A stretch of DNA of 64,000 bases from a bacterium. GTDB taxonomy: Bacteria > SAR324 > NAC60-12. A program made the translations under genes and the position numbers. The stretch is taken from positions 288,001 to 352,000 of the forward strand of contig CBDBHR010000029.1 of NCBI GenBank assembly GCA_965205865.1. Reading direction: 5' to 3'. The notes beneath the pieces were generated by a model that made no database searches, was not told the origin of the DNA, and saw nothing but the letters and a program-made list of their open reading frames with translations. Positions 375-31,275 of the stretch are shown here, piece after piece (the stretch's first letter is position 1; every line of letters starts with the position of its first letter).

Positions 375-578
375 CTATTTCTCCTGTTCTTCCCCGTACA
401 TCTTGGGATCCGGATCAATCTCGATGACCTCGCCATCTCGTAGAACCACCACCCCGGTTTTGTGCTGATGCGCAACTTTATGAGCACGCTTGACGGCACG
501 GTGTAACGCGTTAAGGATGTCCTGCGTTTCCTTGTCGCCATGTTGCGAGGTGGGGATATCTCGATTTCGTTCAGTCAC
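375..578 (-). CDS. Small hypothetical protein, partner of the zeta-like ATPase
   Basis: 67 aa; start overlaps the stop of the upstream ATPase; ALHRAVKRAHKVAHQHKTGVVVLRDGEVIEI resembles small partners of COG4185 ATPases. Confidence 0.6.
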   Translation of the reverse strand: MTERNRDIPTSQHGDKETQDILNALHRAVKRAHKVAHQHKTGVVVLRDGEVIEIDPDPKMYGEEQEK

Positions 579-1099
579 GGGTTTTCTCCCTTTTCAATTA
601 ATGTGGGAATACGGCCGCTAGTATCGAACCACTGCCAATAATCGACGATGTGACGGTACTTTTTCTGAAAATTCTTCAAACCGCTTGCAAAGCGGCGGCG
701 AATGACATCCGGTGGGACATAGTGGCCGCCTTGCCTTACGCGCGATTCGACCCGCTTGATCGCTTCTTCCGGATTTGCCAGCGACAGAAATATCAGCTTG
801 ACCGTGTAACCGTCACTGCGCCAGCGCGGGATCATTCTGGCATAGGTGAGACCGGACAAGGAAGTTTCAAAGGCAAAACTCCTTCGCTGCTGCACGTGTT
901 TTTTAATTTCCTCCAACATCAACCGGGCAGCTCGAAAAAGAGCGGCTTCCGGCTGAAAGGGGGACAGGCCCGCTCCGATCAGGTCAGCGTTGACAAAGGA
1001 TGGACATTTTGCCTCGTGCGGTAAATGCTCCAGTGCGAAAGTTGTCTTTCCAGCGCCGTTGGGTCCGGCGATGATAATGATTTTCCGGTCGACGTCCAT
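575..1099 (-). CDS. Zeta-toxin-like / AAA_33 P-loop kinase-ATPase (COG4185)
   Basis: IIAGPNGAGKTT Walker A, FVNADLI, SFAFETSL and RVRQGGH motifs; GAGGAG RBS before ATG at 1099. Confidence 0.85.
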   Translation of the reverse strand: MDVDRKIIIIAGPNGAGKTTFALEHLPHEAKCPSFVNADLIGAGLSPFQPEAALFRAARLMLEEIKKHVQQRRSFAFETSLSGLTYARMIPRWRSDGYTVKLIFLSLANPEEAIKRVESRVRQGGHYVPPDVIRRRFASGLKNFQKKYRHIVDYWQWFDTSGRIPTLIEKGENP

Positions 1100-1103
1100 C
1101 TCC

Positions 1104-1372
1104 TCATGTCCCCAACGCCTCAAAGTTTTTCTCAATGGTCACCGCCAGCGTCGCCGCCTCTGCGTTCATTTCGTCCATTTCCTCGTGAATCACGCGCAGG
1201 GACTCCCTGAAATCGAAGTTCTCGTCCTCCACTTCGGGAGCGACGCCTACGTAGCAGCCCGGCGTCAAGCTCCAGTCATTGGTTGCCAATTCCGTTTTTT
1301 CGACCAGCTTCGCCAGCCCTTCGACAATGCGAAGTTCCGCATCGGGAAAGCGTTTTTGCAGCCAGCGCGCCT
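1104..1372 (-). pseudogene. hsdM: Type I R-M methyltransferase, C-terminal remnant
   Basis: Frame reads ARWLQKRFPDAELRIVEGLAKLVEKTELATNDWSLTPGCYVGVAPEVEDENFDF, a characteristic HsdM C-terminus; the N-terminal part is absent. Confidence 0.75.
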
Positions 1373-2209: not shown

Positions 2210-2521
2210 ACAGGAATGCAAGCTGGGGCGACTCGATCGAGACGGATTACCCTGACCGATGTCGAGCGTAGAAAGTTCGGGGACTTAACCGGGTTCTTCC
2301 CACTTGAGAGTCTCTTCCAGCTTTTTGACGCCCTCGGTCTCCTCTGCAGTGCGCACTTGGTTCTGCTCGCCTTGCGGTGAGTTTCCGTTGTGCGCTCGAC
2401 TTCCAACGCGTTGGATTCGTCGACATTCACGGCGCCGGCTACTCCGCCAGGTTTCCGTTCAGAAGACGAACAATGCTCATGGGGTTGAAAGGACACTGCA
2501 CTTAGGGCTGTCGTTGAATGT

Positions 2522-3706
2522 TTATGCGGTTTGGGACGCAGTGTCAAAAGAAAGTGTAGCAAGAGCCCCCGCTACTAAGCGTGCCGCGTGCTCGATATCC
2601 TCGTAGGAGGTGAAGCGGCCAAAGCTGAAGCGAATGGAAGAATCGCTCTGAGTTGAGCTCAATCCGAGTGCGCGAAGTACATGCGATGGTTCGGGAATAC
2701 CAGACGCGCAAGCAGCGCCTGTGGATGCGGCAAGTCGTGGCTGAAGGACACCGAGGATGTCCTGCGCATGGAAGCCGTCAAAGCGGATGTTGGCGTTACC
2801 CGGATGACGTCGTGGGCCAATTGTTCCGTTGACGGTGATCGGAGAATTTCCGGCTTGTAGCAAGTGAACAAACGAATCACGCTGCTGAGCGACCCGTGTG
2901 CGTTCCTCGATCGATTTTTCGTCAGCCATGATCCCGGCTGCCGTCGCCATACCCACGCAAAGCGGCATCGGGACGGTGCCGGAACGCAGACCCTCTTGCT
3001 GCCCACCACCATAAATCAATGGCTCGACCGACTCTTTGAGATCACGGCGAACGTACAACGCGCCGATGCCTTGTGGCCCATACATTTTGTGCGCTGAAAG
3101 GCTGATCAAGTCTGTATGCGTGGCAAGATCACCAACTTCCATTCCACAGGGAGCTTGCGCCGCATCACAATGAAACAGGATACCATAGGGCGTGAGCAGT
3201 TTGGCAATCCTTGGGATGTCCTGAATTGTCCCGACTTCGTTGTTCACCGCCATTAGTGAAAGAAGGAGAACATCTCTATCTACGCGTTCTTCCAACACAT
3301 CAAAGTCAACAAATCCTTCGCTGTCGACTGCAATAGTCTCGACGGTGATTCCTTCACGTTCGGACAGCGCCCGCGCTGCCCCTAAGACGCACTTGTGCTC
3401 GATTGCGCTGACCAAAATCCGGCGACGGCCGCCCGGTGCTCGTCGTGCAAGACCGAGTAATGCGAGATTGTTGGCTTCTGTGGCTCCGGAGGTGAAGACC
3501 ACCTCATCGGCATCGGCTCCTATCAAGGCCGCTACGGATGCCGCCGCTTCGCGAACGGCTTCCTCAGCTCGCCACCCGATGACGTGATCGCTCGAGTGAG
3601 GATTGCCGAATGAATTCTCCCAACAGGGAGTCATCTTTTTCAAGACCCGCGGATCAACCGGCGTGGTCGCCTGATAATCCGCGTAAATGGTCTTTCGGTT
3701 GTCCAT
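2522..3706 (-). CDS. Group I cysteine desulfurase (IscS/DndA/SspA-like)
   Basis: YADYQATTP, FTSGATEANN, SAHKMYGPQG (PLP lysine) and STGAACAS (catalytic Cys). Divergent from the DUF4007 operon. Confidence 0.92.
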   Translation of the reverse strand: MDNRKTIYADYQATTPVDPRVLKKMTPCWENSFGNPHSSDHVIGWRAEEAVREAAASVAALIGADADEVVFTSGATEANNLALLGLARRAPGGRRRILVSAIEHKCVLGAARALSEREGITVETIAVDSEGFVDFDVLEERVDRDVLLLSLMAVNNEVGTIQDIPRIAKLLTPYGILFHCDAAQAPCGMEVGDLATHTDLISLSAHKMYGPQGIGALYVRRDLKESVEPLIYGGGQQEGLRSGTVPMPLCVGMATAAGIMADEKSIEERTRVAQQRDSFVHLLQAGNSPITVNGTIGPRRHPGNANIRFDGFHAQDILGVLQPRLAASTGAACASGIPEPSHVLRALGLSSTQSDSSIRFSFGRFTSYEDIEHAARLVAGALATLSFDTASQTA

Positions 3707-3739
3707 GCGTTGCTCCTGGGAATTGCCGTAAGTTTGTCA

Positions 3740-3771
3740 TTGACACTACGAAAATATATCCGTATTGTCAA
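3740..3771. promoter_or_regulatory. Palindromic bidirectional sigma70-type promoter, possible operator
   Basis: TTGACA-17bp-TATTGT on + (3740-3768) and TTGACA-17bp-TAGTGT on - (3771-3743); arms TTGACACTACG / CGTATTGTCAA are 10/11 complementary. Confidence 0.7.
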
Positions 3772-3799
3772 ATTGGACGTTTTAACTGATGGAGAGACA

Positions 3800-4735
3800 A
3801 TGCTGCGAGGTCCCCTCTACAAAGACAACTACCAACCACAGCTGTCGGGGCACGAGACGTTTCCGCTCAGATACGGATGGCTCAAGAAAGCCTTCGACGC
3901 CGTTCGAGAAACCGAAAGCGACCAGAACAACAAATCGGTTTTCTCGGCAGACGATGCCATCGCACGGTTCGGCGTCGGTAAGAACATGGTGGCCTCTATC
4001 CGGCATTGGGCGATTGCGACAGGCGTCATCAAGGATGCGTCGGGTGGAACGGTCACCACGTCAATTGGCCGATGCTTATTTGCTGAAGGTGGTCTCGACC
4101 CTTACATGGAGCACCCGGACACTGCATGGCTCATTCACTGGCAACTCTGCGGCCAACCGCACAAGACCACGTGGTTTTGGGCATTCAATTATTTTCCAGC
4201 ACCATCATTCGATCGCGAGATGCTTGCCAGGAGCTTGCAAAAACTTGCGAAAGATCGTGGATGGCCACGCACGTCTACCGCTACGATTAAAAAGGACGTT
4301 GCATGTTTTGTGCGCACCTATGTATCGTCTTTACCATCAGCAAAGACGAGTTACGAAGATACTTTGGAGTCCCCACTCACGGAACTCGGTTTGATCAAAC
4401 CTATCGGGAAGCGAGACGGATTCCGCTTCATTCGAGGGCGTAAGCCTTCACTCGGGCCTGGCGTGTTTTGCCACGCAGTCACCCATTTCTGGTCACGTTA
4501 TTCGAAAGCGCGAACCCTCTCCTTCGAGGCGCTTGCCCATGAGCCCGGATCTCCGGGAAGGGTTTTTCTGCTGGACGAGAACGACTTGATGGATCGTCTT
4601 TCTACGCTCGAAAGCGTTAGTAACGCCCTTTACAGGTGGTCGGAAACGAGTGGGCTGAAGCAACTTATACGAAACCGCGATTTGGATGATAAAGACACAA
4701 TCCGCTTGATTGAGGGGGACTATGTTGGAGCATGA
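3800..4735 (+). CDS. DUF4007 family protein (SspB-like)
   Basis: SGHETFPLRYGWLKK, FGVGKNMVASIRHW, DPYME, ESPLTELGL and PGSPGRVFLLDE motifs; GGAG RBS before ATG at 3800. Confidence 0.88.
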   Translation: MLRGPLYKDNYQPQLSGHETFPLRYGWLKKAFDAVRETESDQNNKSVFSADDAIARFGVGKNMVASIRHWAIATGVIKDASGGTVTTSIGRCLFAEGGLDPYMEHPDTAWLIHWQLCGQPHKTTWFWAFNYFPAPSFDREMLARSLQKLAKDRGWPRTSTATIKKDVACFVRTYVSSLPSAKTSYEDTLESPLTELGLIKPIGKRDGFRFIRGRKPSLGPGVFCHAVTHFWSRYSKARTLSFEALAHEPGSPGRVFLLDENDLMDRLSTLESVSNALYRWSETSGLKQLIRNRDLDDKDTIRLIEGDYVGA

Positions 4736-4753
4736 CGGAAAGGACAAAACCTG

Positions 4754-7700
4754 ATGGCGCTCGCCGACCGAATCCGGATCACCCGGCGTTTTCAACGCGC
4801 GGTCCGCATAGATAGTGATCTTGGTAATCCTGCGACTTTGGATGGATTTATCTGTCCTCGATCCTCCGCCGAGGTTCTCGAGACAATGGCGCGGCATGTA
4901 GCTGAGAACGGCCAGGGCGCATTCACATGGACGGGTCCCTACGGCAGCGGAAAATCAAGTTTAGCCATTGCCCTGTGCGCCCTGCTCAATGGAGACAAGA
5001 AGCTCGCGCGCAATGCGGAATCGGTTCTGGGGCGGGAAACGGCATCGATCATATGGGAGGCATTACCGCCCAGGACGAGAGGCTGGCATTTTCTGCCTGT
5101 GGTTGGCCGGCGGGATCGTCCCGCGCAAGTTATGGGTGAAGCCATTATCGATTACGATTTCCTGACAGGTCGGCGACCCAAGTCCTGGACCGACAAGCGC
5201 GTTCTCGACACCATTGACGAGATTGAGGCGCGCAATCCACATAGCAGCGGTGGTTTGCTGATGTTCATCGATGAGATGGGTAAATTCCTGGAAGCCACGG
5301 CGAACGACGGATCGGATATATACTTCTTTCAAGAACTCGCGGAGCGGGCTTCGCGTAGTGACAAGCGACTCATTTTAGTTGGTATCCTCCATCAAGCTTT
5401 CGAGGAGTACGCCCATCGTTTGTCACGTGAAATGCGAGACGAATGGTCGAAGATCCAGGGTCGTTTCGTGGACCTTGCCGTCAACACTGGCGGAGATGAG
5501 CAAATCGACGTGATCGGACGTGCAATCGAAAGCGATCACGGTCTGGAAATACCGGGTCCGTTGGCCGAAAACGTGGCTCGACAAACGCAACGAAAGACCT
5601 CTCCTCACTTTGCAGACATGTTGGAAGATTGCTGGCCGCTTCACCCGATCGTCGCCTGTCTGCTGGGTCCTGTTTCACGACGCCGGTTCGGTCAGAACCA
5701 ACGGAGTATTTTCGGATTCCTCAACTCGGCCGAGCCGCAGGGGTTCCAGGATTTTCTCAGACACGCCAGTGACGATGACATTTATGCTCCCGATCGCCTG
5801 TGGGATTACCTGCGGATCAACCTGGAACCGTCTATCCTGGCCTCCCCTGACGGGCACCGCTGGGCGTTGGCTATGGAAGTTCTGCAGCGATGCGAAGCTA
5901 TGGGTGGGGAGGATATACATCTCCGGCTGCTCAAGGTAATTGCAGTGGTCGATATGTTCAAGGACCGCTCCGGCCTTGGAGCGAGTCACGATCTGTTGAA
6001 ACTCGCCTTTCCAGGCTATGATTTTGAAGATATCGGGCGTGCTTTGGATGATTTGCAACGTCGGTCGTTCATTATCTATCGGAAGTTTGTCGATGCATAC
6101 TCGATCTTCGAAGGCAGTGACTTCAATATCGACCACGCGGTAGAACAGGCAATGGGGAGCAAGGATGAGTTGGACTTCACCGCGCTCAACGCGCTGTCCG
6201 GCTTCCAGCCCATCTTGGCGAAGCGACATTATCATGAAACAGGCGCGATGCGCTGGTTCGACGTCGTTGTTGTTCCCCTGGCGGAGATCGAAAATGTAGC
6301 AGCCGACTATGCACCGCTCCATGGTGCTATTGGGAGTTTCTTTCTCACGATTCCCACACAGGGTGAATCGGAAGAGGTGGCGGTGGAAATATGCAGTCGG
6401 GTTGCGCAGATGAGTAGTAATTGGGATATTGTAATTGGCCTGTCGCAGCGAGTCTGGGGAATTCAGGATCTGGTACGTGAACTGTTGGCGCTGGGCAGGT
6501 GCGCGATGAAACTCCGGAGCTACAAGGTGATAGAATTGCCCGCATTGAGGTCCATGCGCGCATCGGTGTGATACAAGAGCAATTGGAGGGTGAGTTCAGT
6601 CGAGCCTTCAACAGCGCGTTCTGGTATCACAAACGATTTAAATCCAAGTTACTTCCGCATGCGGAACTCAATCGTCTGGCCTCCGACATCGCCGATGCTC
6701 GGTTTGGGAGCGCGCCACGGCTCCACAATGAGCTTCTGGGACACGTAAAGCCTTCAAGCAATGCAGTCGCCGCGCGAAATGCTCTCCTGCGACTGATGGT
6801 GCTCAATGAAGGGGAGACACGTCTCGGCATCAAGGGATTTCCTGCCGAAGGCGGTCTCTTCGCATCGTTGTTGCAGGCAACCGGGTTGTACCGCGAAACA
6901 GAGGAGGGATGGCGTTTCATGGCTCCCGAACCAGGGGCGAATGATCCCCGCGACCTGGAACCTACCTGGCAGGCGGCCATGGATTTGCTGAAAGTCAACT
7001 CGCACCGAGCTGTTCCGGTCGCTGAGATTTACGATGTCTGGCGCCAAGCACCGTTCGGGATAAAGGACGGTCTGCTTCCGGTATTGGCAGTGGCGTTTCT
7101 GCTATCGCAGCGTACGAAACTGGCCTTCTACCGTCAGGGGATTTTTCAGGCAAGCGTGTCTGATCTGGATATGGACTATCTCGCCAGGGATCCGGCCGAC
7201 ATTCAGCTTCGATGGATGAACCTCACTGAGACCTCGCGCCAACTCTTGTCCGAAATGGCCGATATCGTGCGTGAATTGCAAGAAGACAATACATTGGCTC
7301 ACATGGAGCCGATAGACGTTGCTAAAGGTTTAGTGGCGATTTATGACCAGCTGCCAGCTTGGGTCAGACGAACGCAGTGCCTTTCAGGCAATTCCAAGCG
7401 TATTCGTCAACTGTTCAAGCAAGCCAACGATCCGAACAGGTTGATCTTCGACGATATCCCGGAAGTGATAAAAGACTGTCCGGTTGCTGGTGAATCAGTA
7501 GCCATACAGCAGGTTGCGAACTACGTTCGCGAGGGTTTGACGGAGCTACAACAGGCCTATCCCACGATGCTCAACCGTATGAGAGATTCACTGCTCACCG
7601 AACTACAGGTACCGAATACCTCACCATCGATAATGGCCGAGTTGCGCGCTCGCGCCAGCAACGTCCGCGATCTTGGTGGAGATTATCGTCTGGAGGCGTT

Positions 7701-8145
7701 TATCATGCGTCTCTCGCAATTTGAAGGACAAGCAAAAGAAATAGAGGATTTGGCCAGCATGTCTGTCAACAAACCACCACGGGACTGGATCGATCCGGAT
7801 ATCGATCGCGCGATGGTGGAACTTGCCGAACTTGCCCAAAAGTTTCTACGCGCCGAGGCATTCGCCCACGTCAAGGGACGCAAAGACAAGAGACACGCCA
7901 TGGCAGTGGTGATAGGCATAGGTGGCCGGCCGACGCCGGCTCATGACGAGTTCGATATCACCGATCCGGAACGCGAGGAGGTGAATGCGCTGATTGACCA
8001 GATAGACACAGTTCTGAAACACAGCGGTGAAAAGCGGCGTAACGTAATCCTGGCTGCCCTGGCTGAGTTGAGTGCCCGCCATCTTCGTGACACGGACATA
8101 GTCAAACCTGAAAAGCTCGGTGGTAAGAAATGGAACGCATGGTGA
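4754..8145 (+). CDS. Large P-loop ATPase (SspC-like), about 1130 aa, split by a 1-nt frameshift near 6493-6495
   Basis: Walker A GPYGSGKS, Walker B LMFIDE, WPLHP and FGQNQRSIFGFL motifs. ORFs 4754-6571 and 6499-8145 join into one frame if one base is added at the GGG run. Confidence 0.85.
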
Positions 8146-8156
8146 GGAACGCAGGC

Positions 8157-8984
8157 ATGGAACGACATGTGTTGGGGCTCTCCGGTGGTCGCGACAGCGC
8201 GGCGTTAGCCGTTTACGTGCGCCAGATTCATCCCGAACTGGATATCGACTACTTCTTTACGGATACCGGCAAAGAGCTACCGGAGGTCTATGAATTTCTG
8301 GTCAAGCTCGAAGGGTTTCTGGGTAAACCCATCGTGCGGTTGAATCCCGACCGGAATTTTGACTATTGGCTGAAGCAGTACAACAACTTTCTGCCGTCGC
8401 CACAGGCACGTTGGTGTACAAGGCAGCTGAAATTGCGACCATTTGAGCAATGGATTCGGCCAATTCTCGATAGTGGCAAAACCGTTTACAGCTACGTCGC
8501 CATTCGCGCGGACGAAGAGTACCGTGAAGGTTACGCGTCCAAACACGACGCTCTCGTCGTGCAGCTCCCTTTCAAAGATGCCGGCATCGACAAAGCAGGT
8601 GTTCTGGAAATTCTGGAAGGCGCGGGATTGGGGTTGCCGAAATACTATGAGTGGCGCACTCGTAGTGGATGCACCTTTTGCTTCTTCCAGCAGAAAATCG
8701 AATGGGTGCGTCTCAAAGAAAAGCACCCGGACTATTTTGAAGAAGCCAAGGCTTATGAAAAAGACGCTGTGGAGCACGGATCGCCTTTCACATGGAGCCA
8801 AGGCGAGTCATTAGCGGAGTTGGAGCAGTCGGAGCGCATCGAGCAGATCAGACAAGATCATGAAAGACGACTCGCTCGCATGCGTTCGAAAGTAAAACCC
8901 AACCCGCTGAGACCAGATAGTGACCCTCTTGATATAGATGACCTGTATGGCCAAGCGAAGGTTTGCTTGGTGTGCCATAAATAG
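8157..8984 (+). CDS. PAPS reductase family protein (SspD/DndC-like)
   Basis: PP-loop LSGGRDS, FTDTG, RWCTRQLK, RSGCTFCFFQ and C-terminal CLVCH. Confidence 0.9.
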   Translation: MERHVLGLSGGRDSAALAVYVRQIHPELDIDYFFTDTGKELPEVYEFLVKLEGFLGKPIVRLNPDRNFDYWLKQYNNFLPSPQARWCTRQLKLRPFEQWIRPILDSGKTVYSYVAIRADEEYREGYASKHDALVVQLPFKDAGIDKAGVLEILEGAGLGLPKYYEWRTRSGCTFCFFQQKIEWVRLKEKHPDYFEEAKAYEKDAVEHGSPFTWSQGESLAELEQSERIEQIRQDHERRLARMRSKVKPNPLRPDSDPLDIDDLYGQAKVCLVCHK

Positions 8985-9008
8985 AAACAGGAAAATCAAG
9001 ACAGTTCA

Positions 9009-9500
9009 ATGACAAAAAACGAATCAAGGCAGTCTTCGCCGGTGGATATGGTGGCAGCACAAGATGAATACTGGACTCACGTTTGGGATATATGCCTGTG
9101 GCCACGACAGTGGCTGACTTGCAACCCGGATCTAAGTTTGTCATGGCAAAGCGTTGAACTCAACAATAGTCAGAGAAGCGAAGTCCCTCAGTATGCCGGT
9201 GTCTATTCGCTGGTGATTCAACCTGGAATTGCTGGTCACCCAGCTTGTTCTTATCTCATGTATCTCGGCAAAGCCAAAGACCTTCGTCAGCGTTTTATTG
9301 ATTATTTGACTGTCGAACGTAACAAGCGTCCAAAAATCGTACGGCTTCTCGAAAAGTATCGCGGTTACATACAGTTCTTCTATTCCGGTATTGACGAAAG
9401 GAAGCTTGATAAGATGGAAGAACAGTTGATTAATGCTTTCGTTCCTCACTGTAATTCAAGGTTCACCGGGGAGATAAACATGATAGTTGGAGCATTCTGA
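9009..9500 (+). CDS. GIY-YIG nuclease family protein
   Basis: GVYSL...YLMYLGKAKDLRQRF...EEQLINAFVPHCN matches the GIY-YIG Y, G, R, E, N signature. Confidence 0.75.
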   Translation: MTKNESRQSSPVDMVAAQDEYWTHVWDICLWPRQWLTCNPDLSLSWQSVELNNSQRSEVPQYAGVYSLVIQPGIAGHPACSYLMYLGKAKDLRQRFIDYLTVERNKRPKIVRLLEKYRGYIQFFYSGIDERKLDKMEEQLINAFVPHCNSRFTGEINMIVGAF

Positions 9501-10798
9501 TGACCACCAACCGAAATCCGCTGTTTCTACCTGCCCTACGCGCAAAAATGGGGGATTGGATCTACTACATAGCTTTCATTAGTATGAAGGAAGTCGCCTC
9601 CCGAGTCAGCGTCGTCGATGATATCCATACAAGTACGTCACTCAAGGAAATGCTACAGAGAATGCTCACGAATGATTCTAAAAAGATTACCGAGTATTTG
9701 CTTGGCCAAGAACAGAGGTTTTTCAATGCGATCGTAATTGGCAGTTACAGCGGCAGTCCGAACTGGCACGACCTGTCCGTCAAGGGAAGAGAGGGAGTTG
9801 CCGACGTTCCGGTACACCCTGAAGGCTCCATAGGCTTTCTCGAACTCAGTGGGGACGAAACGTTGTTCGCGATTGACGGACAGCATCGTGTACAGGGGAT
9901 AAAGGAAGCCGTAGTGCAAAACAGCTCACTCGAAGAAGAAGAGGTGTGCGCAATCTTTGTTAAAGGAGTCACGGCCAGTGAACGCGATAAGGACCCTGAC
10001 GGCTTTGAGCGCACACGGCGCCTTTTTTCGACACTGAACCGGTATGCCAGGCCTGTAAATAAGCGGGATATCATCGCGCTCGACGAAGACGATGTCGTTG
10101 CTGTTGTCACGCGGAGGCTCTTGGAAGAGCATCCCCTGTTACGCAACAAGGTAGACACGGGTCCGAAGAACTCCATCAAGGCCGATGACCGTACCAATTT
10201 GACAACAATTGCAACGTTGTATGACACGATGGACGTTGTCTTGCGCGATCGAAAAAACGGTTGGAACGACTACAAACGTTGGCGTCCGCCTGATGAAGAA
10301 GTCGACGAATTTTACTCGAAGGCCGTGCAGTTTTGGGATGGCTTGAGTAGTCAGGCTCCACCGCTTAAGGAATTACAGGAAAGCTCCGCAGAAGAAGAAA
10401 TTGCGGGCAAGTACCGGGGCTCCTATGGCGGGCATTTACTGTTTCGACCGGTCGGTCTGCTTATGGTCACCCGCGTTGCTATGGACCTTCGTTCCAGTAT
10501 GGACCTGAACGATAACTCTGCTTTGGAACGGATTTGTCACACTCCCACTGAATTATCGGAATATCCATGGACAGGTCTGCTTTGGGACTGCACCAACAAG
10601 CGGATGATAACTGCGAAAGAGAATCAGAAAGTCGCCCGCCGATTGCTCTTCAACGCACTGGGAGGTGACCTGACCAAATATCCTTACAGAACAACAGCGG
10701 AAGATTTGAGAAAGGAACTCGCAGGGATAATGAATCGGGAATTGAGTGATGTCAATCTACCCAGCTACCAACTAAGCATGAAAGACGACATCAAGTAA
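9500..10798 (+). CDS. DndB-like DGQHR domain (ParB-like NTPase) protein
   Basis: PALRAKMGDWIYY, LQR, RFFNAIVIG, LFAIDGQHR and LFSTLNRYARPV motifs; TGATG overlap with the upstream gene. Confidence 0.85.
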   Translation: MTTNRNPLFLPALRAKMGDWIYYIAFISMKEVASRVSVVDDIHTSTSLKEMLQRMLTNDSKKITEYLLGQEQRFFNAIVIGSYSGSPNWHDLSVKGREGVADVPVHPEGSIGFLELSGDETLFAIDGQHRVQGIKEAVVQNSSLEEEEVCAIFVKGVTASERDKDPDGFERTRRLFSTLNRYARPVNKRDIIALDEDDVVAVVTRRLLEEHPLLRNKVDTGPKNSIKADDRTNLTTIATLYDTMDVVLRDRKNGWNDYKRWRPPDEEVDEFYSKAVQFWDGLSSQAPPLKELQESSAEEEIAGKYRGSYGGHLLFRPVGLLMVTRVAMDLRSSMDLNDNSALERICHTPTELSEYPWTGLLWDCTNKRMITAKENQKVARRLLFNALGGDLTKYPYRTTAEDLRKELAGIMNRELSDVNLPSYQLSMKDDIK

Positions 10799-10824
10799 CC
10801 CGCCGAGTTCGCTGTATCGCTATC

Positions 10825-11667
10825 CTACGCATCCAGCGCCGCGACTAGTTCCTGCGTATCAAAGTTGAGGAGGAATTGCGCGTAGAACGTTTGGAAAAGA
10901 TCGGCGATATACTCCGTTATCTCAACGTTACATTCCCCCTCAGGTTCACGCTCCCCCTTGATACTGTATTGGAAAGAAGGAATTTGTTGGTCAACAATCA
11001 GGTATTCGTACCAAGTCGCTTTCTTCCTTTTTTCTTCATCATGCGTAAGGGAGTGGCGACGAATCAAGGTGTATCCGAAAGACGCGCTATTCTCGAACCG
11101 CTTGGAACCGATAAGTTGGTATCGTTTCTTACCACAGAACGCCACCGCACCGGCTCCACCCATGTTGTATTTGCCATGAACGAAGTGAATCTCGTTTTTG
11201 TTGCCGTGCAAGATTGAGAGAAACGTCTTCTCGAAGTCCTCGGGTGACTGTCCTTCTCCGTCGTCATAGACTATCAATGAGGTGTTCATTTTTGGTCCGT
11301 CTGCCAGAATCTGCAGTCGCTCAGCTTGAACTCTCCGCATCGTTCCCAAGTCCCAGTTTTTATTGTCCGGGAAAAAGCGACCAACGGCAGTCTCGATCGA
11401 TCTCGGAGCTTCTTCGGACCGAGGGTCGGTACCCTCTTCGAGACACCTGCGCATGAGAATAGCGTCGATACCGTTGGTGATCTTTTCAATCAGTGCAGGA
11501 ATCGGAGAGGCCTGCTGGTTTTCAACCACGCTGAAGTTGCTCTCGTTCTGCCCATAGGGTCGCCAGTTCGATGAACTGTTCAGGAGTAAATAACGTTCAA
11601 GGATCTTTTCGACTTCTGCTTCCACGGGTGCTCTGTAAAGATCCCAGAAAAGTTGTTCGATGTTCAT
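10825..11667 (-). pseudogene. Probably truncated GHKL (MORC-like) ATPase
   Basis: EKITNGIDA, YDDGEGQ and GKYNMGG are GHKL motifs. At 280 aa it has little sequence beyond the ATPase domain. Confidence 0.6.
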
Positions 11668-11864
11668 TTTACGACCCTACTTAACAAATGAGTACGCTTG
11701 TCCTGGCGATTCGGATTCTCGTCCAGGAAAACGAATCTAACAAAAAAACACATGAGACTGCAAGGCAAAATTTGTGAACGGAGGAGGCCAGCACTATTGC
11801 CGGTATCCACTGCCCCCAAAGGAAGAATTCGAGGGAAACGTACCTTGCATTCAGTCTTTTTTAT

Positions 11865-11880
11865 GGTCTGAATTCAGATC
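11865..11880. promoter_or_regulatory. Palindromic operator candidate of the TA locus
   Basis: GGTCTGAATTCAGATC with perfect 12-bp core TCTGAATTCAGA, 16 bp upstream of the antitoxin ATG and downstream of TTGCAT. Confidence 0.55.
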
Positions 11881-11896
11881 AATCTGGGGAAGGTTC

Positions 11897-12168
11897 ATGA
11901 AATTATCAAGTCAGATGAAGCCGATCAGTTATCTCAAAGCGCACGCCGCGAAAATCGTGCGCACGCTCTGTGAACAACATGAGCCCTTGATAATTACCCG
12001 GAACAGGGAAGCCAAGGTGGTCATTCAGGATATCGACGCCTACGAGCAAACGCAGGAGACAGTTGCGCTACTGAAGATTCTCGCGCTTGGCAGCCACCAA
12101 ATTGAAGTGAGTCACAACCGGCCGACAACGTCATCGCAAGACTCCGGCAGGGTCGCAGGACTTGCTGA
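11897..12168 (+). pseudogene. Phd/YefM antitoxin, frameshifted near 12110
   Basis: MKLSSQMKPISYLKAHAAKIV...PLIITRNREAKVVIQD. The natural tail QPADNVIARLRQGRRTC* is in another frame and ends in TGATG. Confidence 0.75.
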
Positions 12169-12275
12169 TGCCCTTCCTGGTTCAACTGACAGATGACGCG
12201 ACAGGCGACTTGGACGAAATCTACGATTTTATCGAACGCATCAATTCCGAAACCACGTTTGTATCTGTAAGGTAA
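12168..12275 (+). pseudogene. RelE/ParE toxin, N-terminal remnant
   Basis: MPFLVQLTDDATGDLDEIYDFIER followed by an early stop at 35 aa. Confidence 0.7.
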
Positions 12276-12343
12276 AAAGGCCTAATCCATGAGCGAAGCA
12301 GTGGTCTGCCGGACGAGATTGTCTTCGGTATAGGGTGAAAGGT

Positions 12344-13837
12344 TCATGGAGTCTTCTTCAAACGATTCTGCAACTCGCCACCTTTGTCCGTCAGCTGGTA
12401 TTTCTGCTTGCTGCTGGTCGGCTTGTCCGGGACCGTCATTTCCAGCCATCCGCTATCAAGCAGAGGTTGGAGGTAGTTTCCTCGGAAAGTCTTCCAGTGC
12501 TTCAAGCCTAGCAGGGCCATGATTTCCTTCGCCGGCCGGGGCACGCGGCAATACCAGACAACTTGCGCAGTAACTTGTGCGGTAACTTGTGTGGTCAGGT
12601 CCTCCAAGCTGTTCTCGAGTTGCTGCAGCATGCTGTTCGATAAGGCTTCAGAGTCTTCCTGAGATTTTCTTCCAGTTGGAGCGGTGCCCTGGTCCCGACT
12701 GAGTCCCGACTTGGTCCCGACTTGCGCAGTCTGTCTGGGAAACGTGGTTGTAACCCACGACTCCGACACCGCGATCACCGGCTCGGCGACCCCGTGCTCG
12801 CGGCACAGATCACGAATGCGCCGGATACCGGAACCAATTCTCTCGACCGCCTCCATCCGGTGCAGGATGCCAAACAACAGCGGGTTGCGTGGAATGCTCT
12901 TGAAACCAAGGTCCGCTTCAGTCATATCGGCGGGCAACCCACCCGGGCTGGTAATTTCAAGCCGGTCCGTGAAAAGGCATATCTGCGCATTCGCGGTGGA
13001 GCGGTAGTCACGATGGGCCAAGGCGTTGACGACCGCTTCGCGAATAGCTTCTTCCGGCAGTTCCGGCCACTCCTCCCGCCTCAGGCGCTTGATGATGTAC
13101 TCGACGTTGATCTTGGAGAGAATCCAGACCATCACCTCCTCCATCATCGAATAGACGTCGCCGTGGAAATCACGCCTATCGAGAATGCGCACCTTGTCGG
13201 TTCCCATAAACAGAGCGCAGGCAACATCGGCGCTAATATTGAACTTGCGGATGTCCCGGGCCAGCAACCAGGCGCCTGCATGTGTCATCCGGTCGTCCTC
13301 ACCGATCAGGTGCAGGTTGCGTAGTGCGATCGTCGGTTTCATCTCGGTGGGAATTTTGGCGCGGCGCTGAAACAGGGACCAGTTCTCTTCATTGAGGTCT
13401 ATCTCCAATGAAAATTTGTCGCACGCGGTTTCGTCGAAGTGGATCAGCCCTTCCGCGTAGAAGAACTCACGGATCTCCTCACGCGACATCTGCTGGCTGC
13501 TCGACCCCTCGCGGATGAAGAACTTGCCCCCGAACGAGTAGGGCTTGCTCTGCTGGGCCGGCACTCTCACGCAGAGCACTCCATCAATGCTTTCGATCTC
13601 CACCGCGATTGGAGGATCGGCGGAACGGGCGATGGACTGCACCTCGGATTTCAACCGATTATGGTTGGCAACCCCGCATACCTGTCCGTCATCCGTCACG
13701 CCAAGCAGAATCGTCCCCCCCGTGGCGTTGGCAAAGGCGCATATCTCACGCCCGAGCCCGGACGTACCGGAGCGCTTGAAATCCGTCGTGAAACCTTCGC
13801 CGAGGGAGAGGAGGTCGGAGAGTGTCTTTTTGTTCAT
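12344..13837 (-). CDS. AlbA_2 (Schlafen-like) + HATPase_c_4 + C-terminal HTH protein
   Basis: GEGFTTDFK, ICAFANATGGTILLGV, REAVVNALAHRDY, LEITSPGGL, RNPLL, ERIGSGI and PDKPTSSKQKY motifs. Confidence 0.85.
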   Translation of the reverse strand: MNKKTLSDLLSLGEGFTTDFKRSGTSGLGREICAFANATGGTILLGVTDDGQVCGVANHNRLKSEVQSIARSADPPIAVEIESIDGVLCVRVPAQQSKPYSFGGKFFIREGSSSQQMSREEIREFFYAEGLIHFDETACDKFSLEIDLNEENWSLFQRRAKIPTEMKPTIALRNLHLIGEDDRMTHAGAWLLARDIRKFNISADVACALFMGTDKVRILDRRDFHGDVYSMMEEVMVWILSKINVEYIIKRLRREEWPELPEEAIREAVVNALAHRDYRSTANAQICLFTDRLEITSPGGLPADMTEADLGFKSIPRNPLLFGILHRMEAVERIGSGIRRIRDLCREHGVAEPVIAVSESWVTTTFPRQTAQVGTKSGLSRDQGTAPTGRKSQEDSEALSNSMLQQLENSLEDLTTQVTAQVTAQVVWYCRVPRPAKEIMALLGLKHWKTFRGNYLQPLLDSGWLEMTVPDKPTSSKQKYQLTDKGGELQNRLKKTP

Positions 13838-13884
13838 ACTGCTATTTATCTTCTCATCTACCAATTCAGAATTCATTTTGCTCT

Positions 13885-14220
13885 TCAAGAAAAACGGAGT
13901 GGATATTTACCAATCTCCACAAGAATTTCCGGTTTCCCGATCTTTTGCGCAAAGATGTTACAAGTTGTCGCTTCCTTGACAGACCGCATAGTGGTTCGAC
14001 CAAGCTTGCTTATACTATTCAGATTCTTTCGTGCCGCTTCAAATCCATTGATAACCATCAACTTTATGCAGTACTCGGTCGCCTTGTCTGTGTCCAACCC
14101 CGATTGCTCGAGCTTCTCCTTGGAAGGGATGTAGAAAATCTCCACACAATTCGGTTGGCACTTCTTCAAGACGAGCTTGCCGTGACGATATTCATCGATA
14201 TTTTCGTATATGCGAGCCAT
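13885..14220 (-). pseudogene. Hypothetical fragment, possibly an internally deleted N-terminus of a Shedu (DUF4263)-type protein
   Basis: 111 aa next to ISAzo13. Resemblance is from memory only; no nuclease domain is present. Confidence 0.3.
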
Positions 14221-14254
14221 AAATGTTTACTACCTATTATTCGACCATTGCTTA

Positions 14255-15541
14255 GGGCTTGTTACAAAATAAGTTGAACATCTTTGAGTTTCATATAGGG
14301 TGAATGGTGTAGTTCCATTGAGGAAACTTTTTTGCAAATTTTAGATTTATGTTATCAAATTCTTCGTCGGATACTTTCACACCAGTTTTGTATTGCTTGC
14401 GATCAAGTCGAGCCTTGATATTTAGACCGTTTTTGGTCGTAGTCGAGGCGATCAATCTCACCACGGACTCATAGTTTTCTAGTGGCCTGCCTTTCCAATT
14501 CATGCTGATGAATGAAAACATACGATGCTCAATCTTGTTCCACTTGCTTGTCCCTAGTGGATAATGCGCGACTGTAATTGGTATCCCAAGCTTGTTTGCT
14601 AATTCTTGTAAGTAAAACTTCCATGCCCGAGCTCTACTGCCATTGCTCCCTCCGCCATCGGCACACACAAGAATCTCAGTTGCGTTGGGATAGCGCTTTT
14701 TTCCAAAGTGTCTCCACCACTGCCAAAGGCTATTGACAGCAAACTCAGAGGTATCTGAGGACATGCCAACGTTTACAAAACCTTCGTTGCGATTTATGTC
14801 ATATGTCCCATAAGGTATCGCCTTCCCCTCTCCGTAAGATTTGAAATCATGATCAAGAACTTTCTTGTCTTCCTTTGACCACACTCGACCCTCATTCTTG
14901 AAATTTCCGACAAGCTCCTTTTTTTTCGTATCAACCGATACCACTGGATTTCCGTATCTTGAAAACCGATGGACGGATCGATTAATGTGTCTGAATTGCT
15001 TGTCGCGGTTTGGGTGATTTATTCCTGAAAGCATCTTTTTGTTCGATCTCAGGGAATAGCCAAGCTCCTTTAAAAGCCTCATTACCGTGACATAAGATAC
15101 ATCAAATCCGGATTTTCTTAGCTGATCTGCGATAGATCTGGTCGATTTGCATGTCCACCGTAAGCGGCTCATCGGATCTCCTGCAGAAGACTCTTCAAGA
15201 ATGCCCTCAATTGCTTTGAGCAGCTCAGGACTCTTGTGCGTCAAGTACTTTCGTCCTCCACCCTCACGACGGAGACGATCGCTGTCAAGTGATAACGATC
15301 CGTCTTCTTCTAAATCACGGAGGCCCTGAGTTACCGTCGTTCTGGATAGTCCGGTCGTGCGACTTACTTGTGAAACACCTCCGTAGCCAAGCTCTTTTGC
15401 TTTTACTGCTGCAAACCACCTTTTCTGTGGCTCGTTGAGGTAGCCGAACGCCTTAATCCACTCTTTACTGATCTCATGGTTAGTCATGAAATCAGTAGAT
15501 CACAAAAGATCTAGTTGTTCAACTTATTTTGTAACAAGCCC
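14255..15541 (-). mobile_element. ISAzo13 family insertion sequence, complete
   Basis: Perfect 26-bp IRs GGGCTTGTTACAAAATAAGTTGAACA (14255-14280, 15516-15541), with TTA duplicated on both sides. Confidence 0.93.
14291..15487 (-). CDS. ISAzo13 family transposase
   Basis: GDPMSRLRWT, HPNRDKQF, SVDTKKKELVG, ADGGGSN and TSKWNKIEHRMFS motifs. Confidence 0.93.
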   Translation of the reverse strand: MTNHEISKEWIKAFGYLNEPQKRWFAAVKAKELGYGGVSQVSRTTGLSRTTVTQGLRDLEEDGSLSLDSDRLRREGGGRKYLTHKSPELLKAIEGILEESSAGDPMSRLRWTCKSTRSIADQLRKSGFDVSYVTVMRLLKELGYSLRSNKKMLSGINHPNRDKQFRHINRSVHRFSRYGNPVVSVDTKKKELVGNFKNEGRVWSKEDKKVLDHDFKSYGEGKAIPYGTYDINRNEGFVNVGMSSDTSEFAVNSLWQWWRHFGKKRYPNATEILVCADGGGSNGSRARAWKFYLQELANKLGIPITVAHYPLGTSKWNKIEHRMFSFISMNWKGRPLENYESVVRLIASTTTKNGLNIKARLDRKQYKTGVKVSDEEFDNINLKFAKKFPQWNYTIHPI

Positions 15542-15586
15542 TTAGGAACAAACCTTAAATAACCTGTAATTCTTCCAATGGTGTGA

Positions 15587-15660
15587 GCAAAATTGGGGGA
15601 CATGTACAGCGGCATCCCAACTCTACTGTTTTCCTGCTGTTACCTGTCCCCTAATTTTGC
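15587..15660. repeat. Imperfect inverted repeat of about 24 bp (REP-like hairpin)
   Basis: GCAAAATTGGGGGACATGTACAGC versus GCTGTTACCTGTCCCCTAATTTTGC, 25-nt spacer. Confidence 0.7.
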
Positions 15661-15672
15661 GTATCCATACTT

Positions 15673-15866
15673 CTCGACTTTGAACATTTTATTCAACTTT
15701 TGGGTTTAATAAAATCAATGTCTTACGAATCTGTATTGGAATTAATACAGGTCGTATCATCAAAAATGTAAAACAGTAACCTGTATTAATTTTTAACAGA
15801 ATTTCAACTAATTGATATTATTGAATAATGAAAATTAAAAGAATAAATCGAATGTCCAAAGTCCAG
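15673..15866. mobile_element. Putative 194-bp MITE
   Basis: Terminal IRs CTCGACTTTGAACATT / AATGTCCAAAGTCCAG (14/16), flanking direct repeat CATACTT, internal perfect IR AATTAATACAGGT / ACCTGTATTAATT, no ORF. Confidence 0.65.
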
Positions 15867-15899
15867 CATACTTCTAACTTATTTAAATTTCATTCCTTA

Positions 15900-17078
15900 G
15901 TGTATTGCCTGTTTAATACATTGTATTATTGGTCATTTGGTAGACAGGTTTGAGTTTGTTGATAATTTCTTCGGCAGTTTTAGTCCAGACATAGGGTTTT
16001 GGGTTGCGATTGTGTGTCTCGATGTAACTATGGATGGCTTCGGTCAACTCGAGCACGCTTTTGAAGGCGCCTCGTCGAATCCGTTCTGCAGTGATCTTGC
16101 CAAAAAAGCGTTCCACCATGTTCAGCCATGAGGAGGAAGTAGGAATGAAATGCGGGTGAAATCGCGGGTGTTTTTTGAGCCATTCTTTCACCTTAAGATG
16201 TTTGTGGGTGGCGTAATTGTCCAGGATCAAGTGTACCTGCAGTTGCTTCGAGGTAGTCTTGTCAATAAGACGCAGGAAGCGCAGATACTCTTGGTGTCGG
16301 TGCCGTTTTTCACAGCGAGCGAGCACTTCCCCTGTCTGCGTATTCAAAGCAGTAAACAGACAGCAGGTGCCATGACGGATATAATCATGAGTTCTGGTGC
16401 CATTGCGCCCTGGTTTCAGTGGCAGACCTGGCTGGGTGCGATCGAGTGCCTGGATTTGTGATTTCTCATCGACGCTCAAGACCAGCGCTTTCTCAGGAGG
16501 ATTCATGTACAAACCGATGACATCTTTCAGTTTCGCAGTGAAATGCTTATCATGCGACAACTTAAATGTTTTTTCCAGATGAGGCTTGAGGCGATGGGCC
16601 TTCCATACTTTACCGACGGTTGTCTTGCCTACGCCAACTGCCTTGGCCATCGATCGCGTGCTCCAATGGGTACGGTCCTCAGGCTTCTCTTCAATGGTTT
16701 TCTTCACAATCTCCTCGATTTTATCCGCTCCATAAATGCGTGTCCTGCCAGGCCGCGGATCATCATTGAGACCTGTTATTCCTTTTTCAACAAAGCGCCG
16801 TCGCCACTTTCCAACGGCATTACCGCTGGTTCCAAGCGTTTTGGCAATTTCTTGATTCTTAAGGCCATCAGCAGCCAACAGGATGATGCGCGCACGACGA
16901 GTGTCTCGCATCGCTCCGGTATGACGGCGTGCGGTTTTGCCCAATTCATCCCGTTCTTCCCGGGTCAGTTTTATACTTGGTGCTTTTCTCATGCTGTCTC
17001 CATATATGCAAAAAAAAGGACAGCTCGTAGTATAGCAAACCAAGGATTTTTTTACACATTAATAAAAGAGCGACACAT
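15900..17078 (-). mobile_element. IS630 family insertion sequence
   Basis: Flanked by TA (15898-15899, 17079-17080) with imperfect terminal IRs; encloses the transposase. Confidence 0.75.
15913..16992 (-). CDS. IS630 family transposase
   Basis: VDEKSQIQALDR, THDYIRHGT, LDNYATHK and PTSSSWLNMVERFF motifs. Confidence 0.93.
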   Translation of the reverse strand: MRKAPSIKLTREERDELGKTARRHTGAMRDTRRARIILLAADGLKNQEIAKTLGTSGNAVGKWRRRFVEKGITGLNDDPRPGRTRIYGADKIEEIVKKTIEEKPEDRTHWSTRSMAKAVGVGKTTVGKVWKAHRLKPHLEKTFKLSHDKHFTAKLKDVIGLYMNPPEKALVLSVDEKSQIQALDRTQPGLPLKPGRNGTRTHDYIRHGTCCLFTALNTQTGEVLARCEKRHRHQEYLRFLRLIDKTTSKQLQVHLILDNYATHKHLKVKEWLKKHPRFHPHFIPTSSSWLNMVERFFGKITAERIRRGAFKSVLELTEAIHSYIETHNRNPKPYVWTKTAEEIINKLKPVYQMTNNTMY

Positions 17079-20085: not shown

Positions 20086-20086
20086 G

Positions 20087-29943: not shown

Positions 29944-31026
29944 CTATGATTCCCTGGTTTTTTCACGCAAAAGCCGGATCAATTTAACATGGGCGGATGG
30001 GAAAGAAAACTGATCCAGTTGGTCCAAAGCGACCCATTTGATAGATGCAGACTCTTCAGGTGGGTCATAGTCGTTGCAAACGCATAAAAAGCAGTGCAGG
30101 GTCACTTTGAAGGAGGTGTAGCCATGTTTGATGGTCGACAAGCGTCGCTCGATGGTGATGCCAACCTGGTGCTGCTTTCGCATGCCGGTGATCAAGGTCT
30201 GTTGCATATCCCGCTTTCCATTCAGACGGATATTGGGGAATTCCCACAATCCTGCCATCAATCCTTCTGCAGGACGTTTACGAATCAAAAACCGCTTCTC
30301 TTTTTGAATGACTGCCAGGGCGGTGGTGATGGACTGCAAAGGACGGCGTTGGATCTTGACGGGGACTTGTTCTGAGGTACCATGCCGGAATGCATGACAA
30401 AAATTTTGCAGCGGACACAACAGGCAGTTGGGAGATTGCGGAAGACAGATCAAGGCACCCAACTCCATCAACGCCTGGTTGAAGAAACGCGCCTGCCCCC
30501 GGGGAATCCAGGATTCAGCGAGGTGCCATAAAGTTTTTCGCATTGCAGCGGACTTGGGGTTCTCCCGGAAATTCATCAAACGGCATATCACTCGTTCCAC
30601 GTTGCCATCGACGACGGGTTTGTCTTGATTGAAAGCGACGCTGGCAATGGCTCCTGCAGTGTATCGTCCGATGCCGGGAAGCGCCAGTATTTCCTCGAAG
30701 TCAGTAGGAAAATTGCCTTGGTGCTGCTTGCGGATCCGTTGCGCGGCTTTCCGAATGTTTTGCGCGCGAGAGTAATATCCCAATCCTTCCCAAAGCTTGA
30801 GAATCGTTTCTTCAGACGCTTCCGCCACCGTCTCAATGGTGGGAAGCGTTGTCATCCATCGTGAAAAATAAGGCAAGACGGTGGTCACTTGAGTCTGCTG
30901 CAGCATGATTTCGGAAATCCACACCGCATAGGGATCGTACGACCGGCGCCAGGGCAAATCCCGTTGATGCCGGGCAAACCAATGCAAGAGTTTTTCTTGG
31001 AATGCAGGAAGATCGGAAGGAAGCAT
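29944..31026 (-). CDS. mutY: A/G-specific adenine glycosylase
   Basis: RDLPWR, SEIMLQQTQV, WEGLGYYSRA, LPGIGRYTA, VDGNV, Fe-S Cys motif and NUDIX-like tail. Confidence 0.95.
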   Translation of the reverse strand: MLPSDLPAFQEKLLHWFARHQRDLPWRRSYDPYAVWISEIMLQQTQVTTVLPYFSRWMTTLPTIETVAEASEETILKLWEGLGYYSRAQNIRKAAQRIRKQHQGNFPTDFEEILALPGIGRYTAGAIASVAFNQDKPVVDGNVERVICRLMNFRENPKSAAMRKTLWHLAESWIPRGQARFFNQALMELGALICLPQSPNCLLCPLQNFCHAFRHGTSEQVPVKIQRRPLQSITTALAVIQKEKRFLIRKRPAEGLMAGLWEFPNIRLNGKRDMQQTLITGMRKQHQVGITIERRLSTIKHGYTSFKVTLHCFLCVCNDYDPPEESASIKWVALDQLDQFSFPSAHVKLIRLLREKTRES

Positions 31027-31090
31027 GGAAGCGTTCGCCACAGTAAAAGTGATAAGAAATGAGATGCTTTGGCATGCCAATATATGCCTT

Positions 31091-31275
31091 GCTTCGATCT
31101 CGTCGCGGTTGGCTTCCAGATATTGCCGGAAGTCCAGCGCCATGGCTTCCGCATTCTCGTGAGCATCGCCCTCCCAGTCTGCGCGGAGCACGGTGTCCAG
31201 GCCGTCATGGTCGATGGTTTGTTCCTTACCACGGCGAATGGAGTCGATCAGCTCGATCAGCTCACCGTTGAAGAC
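31091..31275 (-). pseudogene. hsdR: 185-bp internal fragment of a second hsdR allele
   Basis: Colinear diverged copy of 20574-20758, same orientation, mostly synonymous differences. Confidence 0.9.

Follow-up and report, generated by a model that had tools for sequence, protein, structure and literature searches.

We analysed a stretch of 64,000 nucleotides (nt), here called the window, from a bacterium of the lineage SAR324; NAC60-12 (assembly GCA_965205865.1, contig CBDBHR010000029.1, positions 288,001 to 352,000 of the forward strand). At positions 2522..10798 it carries an Ssp-type locus for phosphorothioate (PT) modification of DNA, where a pair of genes for a GIY-YIG protein (P0001) and a DGQHR-domain protein (P0002) follows the writer genes. 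As the original prediction had stated, a cysteine desulfurase gene is divergent from genes for a DUF4007 protein, an ATPase, a PAPS-reductase-family protein, a GIY-YIG protein and a DGQHR protein. The gene order is sspA on the reverse strand, then sspB-sspC-sspD, the GIY-YIG gene and the DGQHR gene as an operon on the forward strand:

2522..3706, reverse strand: sspA, cysteine desulfurase of 394 amino acids (aa); PADLOC SspA 421.6 bits, E 8e-127; DndA E 1.1e-123; Pfam Aminotran_5 E 6.3e-76.
3710..4735, forward strand: sspB, DUF4007 protein, longest open reading frame (ORF) 341 aa; Pfam DUF4007 E 4.4e-88 over residues 45-328; PADLOC SspB PDLC02769 352 bits.
4754..6571, forward strand: N-terminal piece of sspC; PADLOC SspC PDLC02780 770.6 bits, profile positions 1-584 of 1045.
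6492..6494, forward strand: frameshift site in sspC, a GGG run with a 1-nt deletion, placed by frame comparison with the intact SspC proteins of loci L022, L041, L018, L076 and L086.
6499..8145, forward strand: C-terminal piece of sspC, an ORF of 548 aa; PADLOC SspC PDLC02780 518.1 bits, profile positions 586-1044.
8130..8984, forward strand: sspD, PAPS-reductase family, 284 aa; PADLOC SspD 454 bits, E 5.4e-137; Pfam PAPS_reduct E 3.5e-07.
9009..9500, forward strand: first gene of the pair, GIY-YIG nuclease by predicted fold and conserved residues, 163 aa.
9500..10798, forward strand: second gene of the pair, DGQHR/DndB-superfamily protein, 432 aa; TIGR03187 109.5 bits (cut-off 58.85); Pfam DndB E 3e-24.

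Homologues of all four SspABCD proteins are clustered here and each is matched by its PADLOC model, which bears out the earlier identification of the domain set as an Ssp writer. The true start of sspB probably lies downstream of the longest-ORF start; its position is uncertain because the family match begins only at residue 44-45. PADLOC 2.0.0 was run on 36 ORFs of the window (12 in 1-14 kilobases (kb) and 24 of at least 220 aa in 17-64 kb), and none of them matched a model for SspE, SspFGH, DndFGH, PglZ or BrxL, whose absence from the window had been noted before. Among the same 36 ORFs, the evidence for a type 4 bacteriophage exclusion (BREX) system is limited to weak secondary BrxC/BrxP matches beneath SspC and SspD. 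Two SspF models and one SspG model, searched without a positive control and with SspH not included, likewise found nothing in the window's own genome (G000, 91.9% complete).

Comparison with a genome of the same genus (G038, one contig) showed a different gene behind the same writer genes. The sspA-B-C-D genes of G038, with an intact sspC, share 84% nt identity with window positions 2550-8988, and its right flank shares 91% nt identity with positions 11607-12238. Between these flanks G038 carries a single gene, convergent on sspD, for an SspE of 807 aa (PADLOC PDLC02786, 851 bits) that is 52% identical to a Poribacteria SspE. The same interval of the window holds the GIY-YIG and DGQHR genes together with a gene remnant:

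10825..11667, reverse strand: remnant of a GHKL (HATPase_c_3-like) gene, an ORF of 280 aa convergent on the pair; tblastn with the 817-aa protein of locus L024 gives 62% identity over residues 1-230 and 31% over 768-816.

The breakpoints of the swap lie just past the sspD stop codon on the left and ~18 codons into the remnant ORF on the right. With P0002 as query, no homologue was found in G038. Conversely, the SspE model gave only a partial N-terminal match of 41 bits in the window's own genome, against 851 bits in G038 as positive control; this 91.9%-complete genome thus has no SspE elsewhere, whose presence would have spoken against the original prediction. The five DUF262 proteins of this genome have their best matches in HEC-06/Orf5, HEC-05-like (two) and NsnA (two), and neither protein of the pair matched PF03235, PF07510 or the PADLOC SspE model. 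Thus, the pair occupies the slot that SspE normally fills: SspE sits there in G038, which has no relative of the DGQHR protein, and the window's genome has no SspE.

The GIY-YIG assignment of the 163-aa ORF is borne out by fold and residues. The Pfam GIY-YIG match (PF01541, E 0.0072, 17 bits) falls under the gathering score of 22.6, and PADLOC gave no match for this protein. A structure model built with 22 homologues (predicted local distance difference test score (pLDDT) 77.3) was matched by Foldseek to the GIY-YIG domain of UvrC (1yd2/1yd5; E 1.2e-4 to 1.4e-4, prob 1.00, template modelling score 0.70-0.73 on the target), followed by T4 EndoII, PD-T4-3, R.Eco29kI and Hpy188I. Five residues (G64, Y66, Y85, G87, R95) do not vary among 75 aligned family members; Y99 and E137 occur in 74 of them, R107 in 73 and N149 in 53. 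The tyrosines, the arginine and the glutamate (and the asparagine) presumably have the catalytic roles that they play across the GIY-YIG superfamily. From fold and residues together, the protein is likely an active nuclease. Its stop codon overlaps the start of the DGQHR gene (TGATG), and the two genes are translationally coupled.

The DGQHR protein belongs to the DGQHR-domain family (TIGR03187/PF14072) by its score and by the pentapeptide D126-R130. In an alignment of 82 sequences, D126, G127, Q128 and R130 are present throughout and H129 in 80, and an “ERTRRLFSTLN” block and an “LDEDD” patch are nearly invariant. A structure model (pLDDT 83.2) places its N-terminal domain (~residues 16-185) in the ParB/sulfiredoxin (Srx) fold, with similarity in a wide structure search to PadC (6ryk, Z 6.4), KorB (8qa8, Z 6.4) and the pNOB8 ParB N-domain (5k5d, Z 6.3, 181 residues aligned), and lower values for sulfiredoxin (Z 5.2) and SspE (6jiv, Z 3.9). 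These Z values are modest, and the fold was seen at Z ~6 in the wide search only; Foldseek against the PDB returned nothing at E <=0.001 (best a ParB N-domain, E 0.037), and a sequence profile search of solved structures gave no match at E up to 1. For the C-terminal domain an active HEPN motif was also considered; it is unsupported, with R306 present in 81 of the 82 sequences and H312 in only 52. Prediction of a complex of the two proteins, run without controls, gave scores of 0.16 and 0.11 where the mark is 0.32, which weighs neither for nor against binding.

Conservation analysis was performed with one genome per species and the DGQHR protein, which has more than 4,000 database relatives, as bait. 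It gave 205 loci, of which the best 80 underlie the locus counts below; they stem from many bacterial phyla, including numerous sponge-symbiont lineages, and from three archaeal metagenome-assembled genomes (MAGs). In 73 of the 80 loci the gene directly upstream of the DGQHR gene, on the same strand, encodes a GIY-YIG homologue. Among the seven others, two are cut near a contig end (L019, L053), one is decayed (L007), and the remainder are L010, L016, L017 and L070. Across 74 pairs the stop and start codons overlap by 1 or 4 nt in 51 cases, and the gap is <=0 in 62. The nearest relatives of the DGQHR protein, in two Entotheonella MAGs (L007 and L010; 82% and 78% identity), lack a GIY-YIG gene. 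In L007 (9709-11272) only fragments of sspD (residues 2-44) and of the GIY-YIG gene (residues 131-163) precede the DGQHR gene, with an HNH_2 protein beside it; these two loci are decayed copies of the cassette.

The pair is closely linked to PT writers. Of the 80 loci, 65 carry a PAPS-reductase writer gene; 51 of them fall into the SspD cluster and 9 into the DndC cluster, and 5 were recognised by phmmer only. At least 9 kb of sequence is available on both sides in 52 loci, 47 of which have the pair, and in 43 of these 47 an Ssp or Dnd writer is located no more than 10 kb away (SspC and SspD in 37, DndC in 5, phmmer alone in 1). The order sspD-GIY-DGQHR, with a distance of up to 100 nt between sspD and the GIY-YIG gene, occurs in 24 loci. 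Co-occurrence with sspBCD, on which the original prediction had made itself dependent, is thus far beyond chance. All six genes recur in the same sspD-GIY-DGQHR order on plasmid pROLI83 of Roseobacter litoralis B14 (L088, with the pair at 8471-10251 of the locus), where RefSeq labels them as desulfurase, DUF4007, ATP-binding, PAPS reductase, hypothetical protein and DGQHR domain-containing protein, and the pair is also found in the cultured Phaeovulum veldkampii DSM 11550 (L077). PADLOC has no model for either gene of the pair and NCBIfam names only the domain. No description of the pairing was found in the literature, with subscription journals and supplements outside that coverage.

In six dnd clusters of the survey (L045, L055, L073, L080, L083, L084) and in Salmonella Infantis SARB27 the pair is found together with a true dndB, and it is carried on plasmids and an integrative and conjugative element (ICE). 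A search of a phage collection with the DGQHR protein retrieved a single record; it is no phage but a contig of Salmonella that carries a dnd cluster on an ICE. Among 88 genomes of the window's phylum, the window's own is the only one with a true member of the GIY-YIG family; six other matches are weak and lie within larger frames. Several loci, among them L086, L041, L018 and L076, have an SspD that is 77-84% identical to that of the window and a DGQHR protein that is only 38-50% identical. The nearest complete pair, in L008 and L009, is 65-66% (DGQHR) and 63% (GIY-YIG) identical, yet SspD there reaches only 46-48% and SspC ~25%. Judged from these identities, the cassette moves independently of the writer and combines with different Ssp lineages and with Dnd writers. 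The arrangement is a recurrent cassette across many phyla and not a one-off hybrid. In one Dehalococcoidia chromosome (L071), two GIY-DGQHR pairs in opposite orientation flank a single sspA/sspBCD cluster.

The locus had been described as a variant PT system that combines an Ssp writer with a Dnd-type component. The Ssp writer and its non-canonical module stand, and the notions of a Dnd-type component and of a one-off hybrid do not. The DGQHR protein matches the PADLOC DndB model (E 1e-14) in addition to the Pfam DndB family. Against the DndB equivalog TIGR03233 it reaches 55.5 bits at a cut-off of 328, its gene sits after sspD, and the pair coexists with true dndB, which rules out the Dnd-type assignment.

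The Pfam and PADLOC matches leave room for a reading in which the pair regulates or edits PT marking and takes no part in restriction. The DGQHR protein would then be a DndB-like, ATP-modulated repressor that limits PT density, and the GIY-YIG protein would serve marking or turnover, e.g., by nicking or removing faulty marks. DndB has been described as a negative regulator (PMC4507180, PMC3632139), no DndB counterpart is known for Ssp operons, the pair usually follows directly on sspD, and in the window it tolerates a broken writer. We consider such a role unlikely: coexistence with genuine dndB in dnd clusters means that the pair does not supply the DndB function, the equivalog score is far under its cut-off, and the slot in G038 holds a restriction effector, SspE. 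Regulation would also leave unexplained why the partner is obligatory and has kept its nuclease active site intact, and a DndB-like role is weakened because the pair both coexists with genuine dndB and always carries this nuclease.

We favour, with a confidence only somewhat better than even, a reading of the locus in which the SspE slot behind an SspABCD PT writer is filled by a two-gene effector cassette, the cassette being a split, two-protein analogue of SspE and DndI. Both of these are DUF262(DGQQR)-HNH proteins, PT-regulated nucleoside triphosphatases (NTPases) and nickases that act together with PT writers (PMC11662687, PMC8092258), PT sensing by SspE has been reported (PMC8092258, PMC11662687), and DUF262 is described as homologous to the DGQHR domain (PMC4619093). 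We propose the analogy because the pair would supply the same two functions on two coupled polypeptides. In its favour are the constant pairing, the conserved nuclease residues, the DGQHR motif with its ParB/Srx-like N-terminal domain, the linkage to PT writers, the recurring gene order, the slot shared with SspE and the rarity of loci that hold both SspE and the pair (2 of 80). The DGQHR protein would be a ParB/Srx-fold NTPase that binds DNA and reads its PT state, like the DUF262 domains of SspE and DndI, and it would control the separate GIY-YIG nuclease, which in turn would nick or cut invading DNA. The pair would thus represent a fused sensor-nuclease effector split in two, with GIY-YIG replacing HNH. 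The identities of the genes, the folds, the conserved catalytic motifs, the tight coupling, the association with writers, the exchange against SspE and the reality of the frameshift are shown by the data above, and NTPase activity, PT sensing, complex formation, control of the nuclease and an anti-phage effect are inferred from them.

Several observations weigh against this reading. Two Poribacteria loci (L024, L029), the only 2 of the 80 in which both occur, hold SspE as well as the pair, so that the pair is not strictly an SspE substitute. Four of the 47 full-flank pair loci (L039, L048, L064, L078) have no writer within 10 kb, and a helicase-containing module, present in 24 of the 73 pair loci, could be the real effector. 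An hhalign comparison of the DGQHR protein with the G038 SspE aligned only 17 columns of the motif region (E 0.059, probability 0.93%), in addition to the weak structural likeness given above (Z 3.9). Finally, the pair is intact although sspC is broken, which speaks against an effector directed at unmarked self DNA.

The loci without a writer would be expected if the pair were a stand-alone defence or addiction module that acts independently of PT and is merely gathered in the same islands as Ssp and Dnd systems. Its presence on plasmids and an ICE, and in the window within a defence island, would agree with this. A writer at 43 of 47 loci is however far above what is expected from a genome frequency of PT systems given as ~10% (PMC12914056), and two unrelated writer types are linked to the pair, with the PT mark as their only common feature. 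Of the explanations weighed here, an independent module is the one to which we give the least credence.

The helicase-containing modules bear on another alternative, in which the pair is a sub-part of a larger effector and, in the window, an orphaned fragment of it. In 10 loci a superfamily 2 (SF2) helicase, a HATPase_c_3 protein and a PLD-like nuclease form a trio, and in 14 a Pbe-like helicase is found with a PbeC/DndD-like ATPase, many of these with a small protein of ~153 aa. A full-length GHKL ATPase gene of 818 aa is located directly upstream of GIY-DGQHR in 8 of the 80 loci, including the two with SspE, and the window keeps its remnant as an inverted, internally deleted copy of the ~818-aa gene with residues 1-230 and 768-816 left. 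The first ~18 codons of this remnant and the region upstream of it are common to G038, where SspE follows instead. Such an origin is rather improbable, only slightly less so than that of an independent module: 15 of the 43 full-flank loci with pair and writer have none of these neighbour modules. Furthermore, the modules vary by locus and lie on either side and either strand, as independent island cassettes do, and only the GIY-DGQHR coupling is constant.

As a split effector, the pair resembles several known systems. SspE (DUF262/GmrSD_N with DUF1524/HNH; PDB 6JIV, 7DRS) is likewise encoded after sspBCD, in G038 in this very slot, and both combine a ParB-superfamily NTPase-type domain with a DGQxR motif and a nuclease. 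They differ in that the pair consists of two polypeptides and SspE of one, in the nuclease (GIY-YIG versus HNH) and in the sensor, which is of the DGQHR/DndB family (PF14072) in the pair and of DUF262 (PF03235) in SspE. DndI of the IscS-DndBCDE-DndI system (PDB 9JFL) couples a ParB-like DGQQR ATPase to a nickase, has a PT writer as partner, and its ATPase is controlled by PT (PMC11662687); the pair, too, occurs beside dnd clusters. In contrast to the fused DUF262-HNH protein DndI, the pair consists of separate proteins, and its activity is predicted only.

Likeness to DndB (TIGR03233), the regulator of dndBCDE, comprises PF14072, the DGQHR motif and a ParB-like N-terminal domain. Unlike DndB, the DGQHR protein is not encoded by the first gene of a dnd operon and is paired with a GIY-YIG protein, besides its low equivalog score and its coexistence with true DndB. 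Another DGQHR-domain family tied to dnd genomes is TIGR04172, “DNA phosphorothioation-associated DGQHR protein 1”, which Basu et al. (2011) found to be strictly linked to them (7/7; PMC3226654). The DGQHR protein scores 17.9 bits against it at a cut-off of 450 and is thus of a different subfamily, and the passages of PMC3226654 consulted name no nuclease partner. The type IV systems GmrSD and BrxU (DUF262 with DUF1524) also join a ParB-like NTPase domain to a nuclease responsive to DNA modification (PMC4619093). In contrast to the pair, they are fused, have HNH-type nucleases, target modified bases and have no link to a PT writer.

According to Wang et al. (2021), 2,211 of 2,678 sspBCD clusters have neither sspE nor sspFGH and 83.9% are without a known partner; that study proposed that further restriction partners exist (PMC8092258). 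The pair is a concrete candidate and a widespread one: it is found in bacteria and archaea, beside Ssp as well as Dnd writers, and in cultured strains. As a more tentative extension, GIY-YIG and DGQHR might form a portable PT reader-cutter that senses the PT backbone mark itself, irrespective of sequence context, and that plugs into any PT writer, Ssp or Dnd, bacterial or archaeal. This would constitute a third class of PT-dependent restriction effector, in addition to the fusions of DUF262 and HNH (SspE, DndI) and to the multi-subunit systems DndFGH, SspFGH and Pbe, and might explain some of the ~84% of sspBCD clusters that were reported to lack a known partner. If the split-effector reading is true, the principle of a sensor coupled to a nuclease, as in SspE and DndI, has arisen at least twice from different parts, and the separate sensor protein would provide a handle on how the PT backbone mark is read.

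The writer itself is broken in the window. The ATPase of about 1130 aa that had been reported is indeed SspC, and it is obtained only by reading through a frameshift and not as a single open frame; an intact full-length SspC (~1050-1130 aa in one frame) was not found in the window. The two ORFs abut at 6493/6499, and in the N-terminal ORF residues 1-580 correspond to SspC and the remainder is out of register up to the stop. At the break point intact relatives read “...LAL-x-QVRDETPELQGDRIAR...”, which the window matches only when one base is added to the GGG run.

To this locus we compared Logan contigs of four metagenome runs from four studies (X1, X2, X3 and X7, with X2 possibly the source sample), placed on window positions 2500-11700. 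Contigs of X2, X3 and X1, from three of the studies, span the site without a gap and carry the same broken allele, X3 with 7 differences in 539 bases and X1 with none in 227. The strain in X7 diverges by ~3% (34 differences in 1092 bases); an additional G behind 6492 gives it the open frame (1 contig, depth 10.3 of 10.3), and among the four runs the open-frame allele was seen in X7 only. The frameshift is a real allele of the lineage and no assembly artefact, because the contigs of X1, X2 and X3 carry it too. Phase variation of sspC through a long homopolymer was considered and is ruled out by the absence of such tracts: the sspC spans of 51 loci contain no run of at least 8 G/C or at least 9 A/T, and the window's sspC, with its break in a G3/G4 run, has none of at least 6 G/C or at least 8 A/T. 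Within the GIY-YIG and DGQHR genes, the sole indel listed for X3 and X7 is an in-frame 3-nt insertion at 10751.

With a genuine frameshift in its writer gene sspC, the system may be inactive in its present state. To judge from the broken frame, PT marking, and hence PT-dependent defence, is probably off in the window's lineage. Unless the mutation is recent, an intact pair next to a broken writer is more in keeping with a PT-activated mode like that of SspE than with one in which unmarked DNA is cut. The broken and open-frame sspC alleles, together with the swap of SspE and the pair between congeners, are ready natural comparisons.

In the 3' end of sspD (window 8640-8946) the summed contig depth reaches 69.8-225, ~6 to 70x that of the neighbouring bins, in all four runs; this segment would seem to be near-identical in many co-resident organisms. 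One X1 contig that joins 8812 to 10825 without the pair (side 47, depth 28.4) was not used. It is probably from another organism, because its depth is far above that of the strain there and it joins within the strongly conserved sspD 3' end.

By its gene content the window is a defence island with a Type I restriction-modification (R-M) set, toxin-antitoxin genes and insertion sequence (IS) elements. The R-M set is complete, lies on the reverse strand and consists of hsdM at 17078-18565 (PADLOC MTase_I, 642.7 bits), hsdS at 18562-20085 (Specificity_I, 209.8) and hsdR at 20087-22852 (REase_I, 167.1); as a whole (17078-22852) it is syntenic in G038 at ~91% nt identity. The block at 12238-17083 is absent from the syntenic region of G038. 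A gene with Schlafen AlbA_2, HATPase_c_4 and Fic-like_C domains is located at 12344-13888 (reverse strand), and transposases of the ISAzo13 family (14291-15487) and the IS630 family (15913-17043) lie in a low-GC stretch (0.40-0.47). Closer to the locus, a Zeta-toxin/AAA_33-like kinase ORF is found at 575-1135 (reverse strand) and a Phd/YefM-family antitoxin ORF at 11774-12196 (forward strand). Further downstream, on the reverse strand, the window encodes a type II nicking-endonuclease-like protein with a PDC-S07-like C-terminus (29944-31191), a UvrD/GajB-like helicase (51320-53326; PADLOC RTasHel 314 bits, GajB 300 bits) and an IetA-like ATPase (59358-61160).

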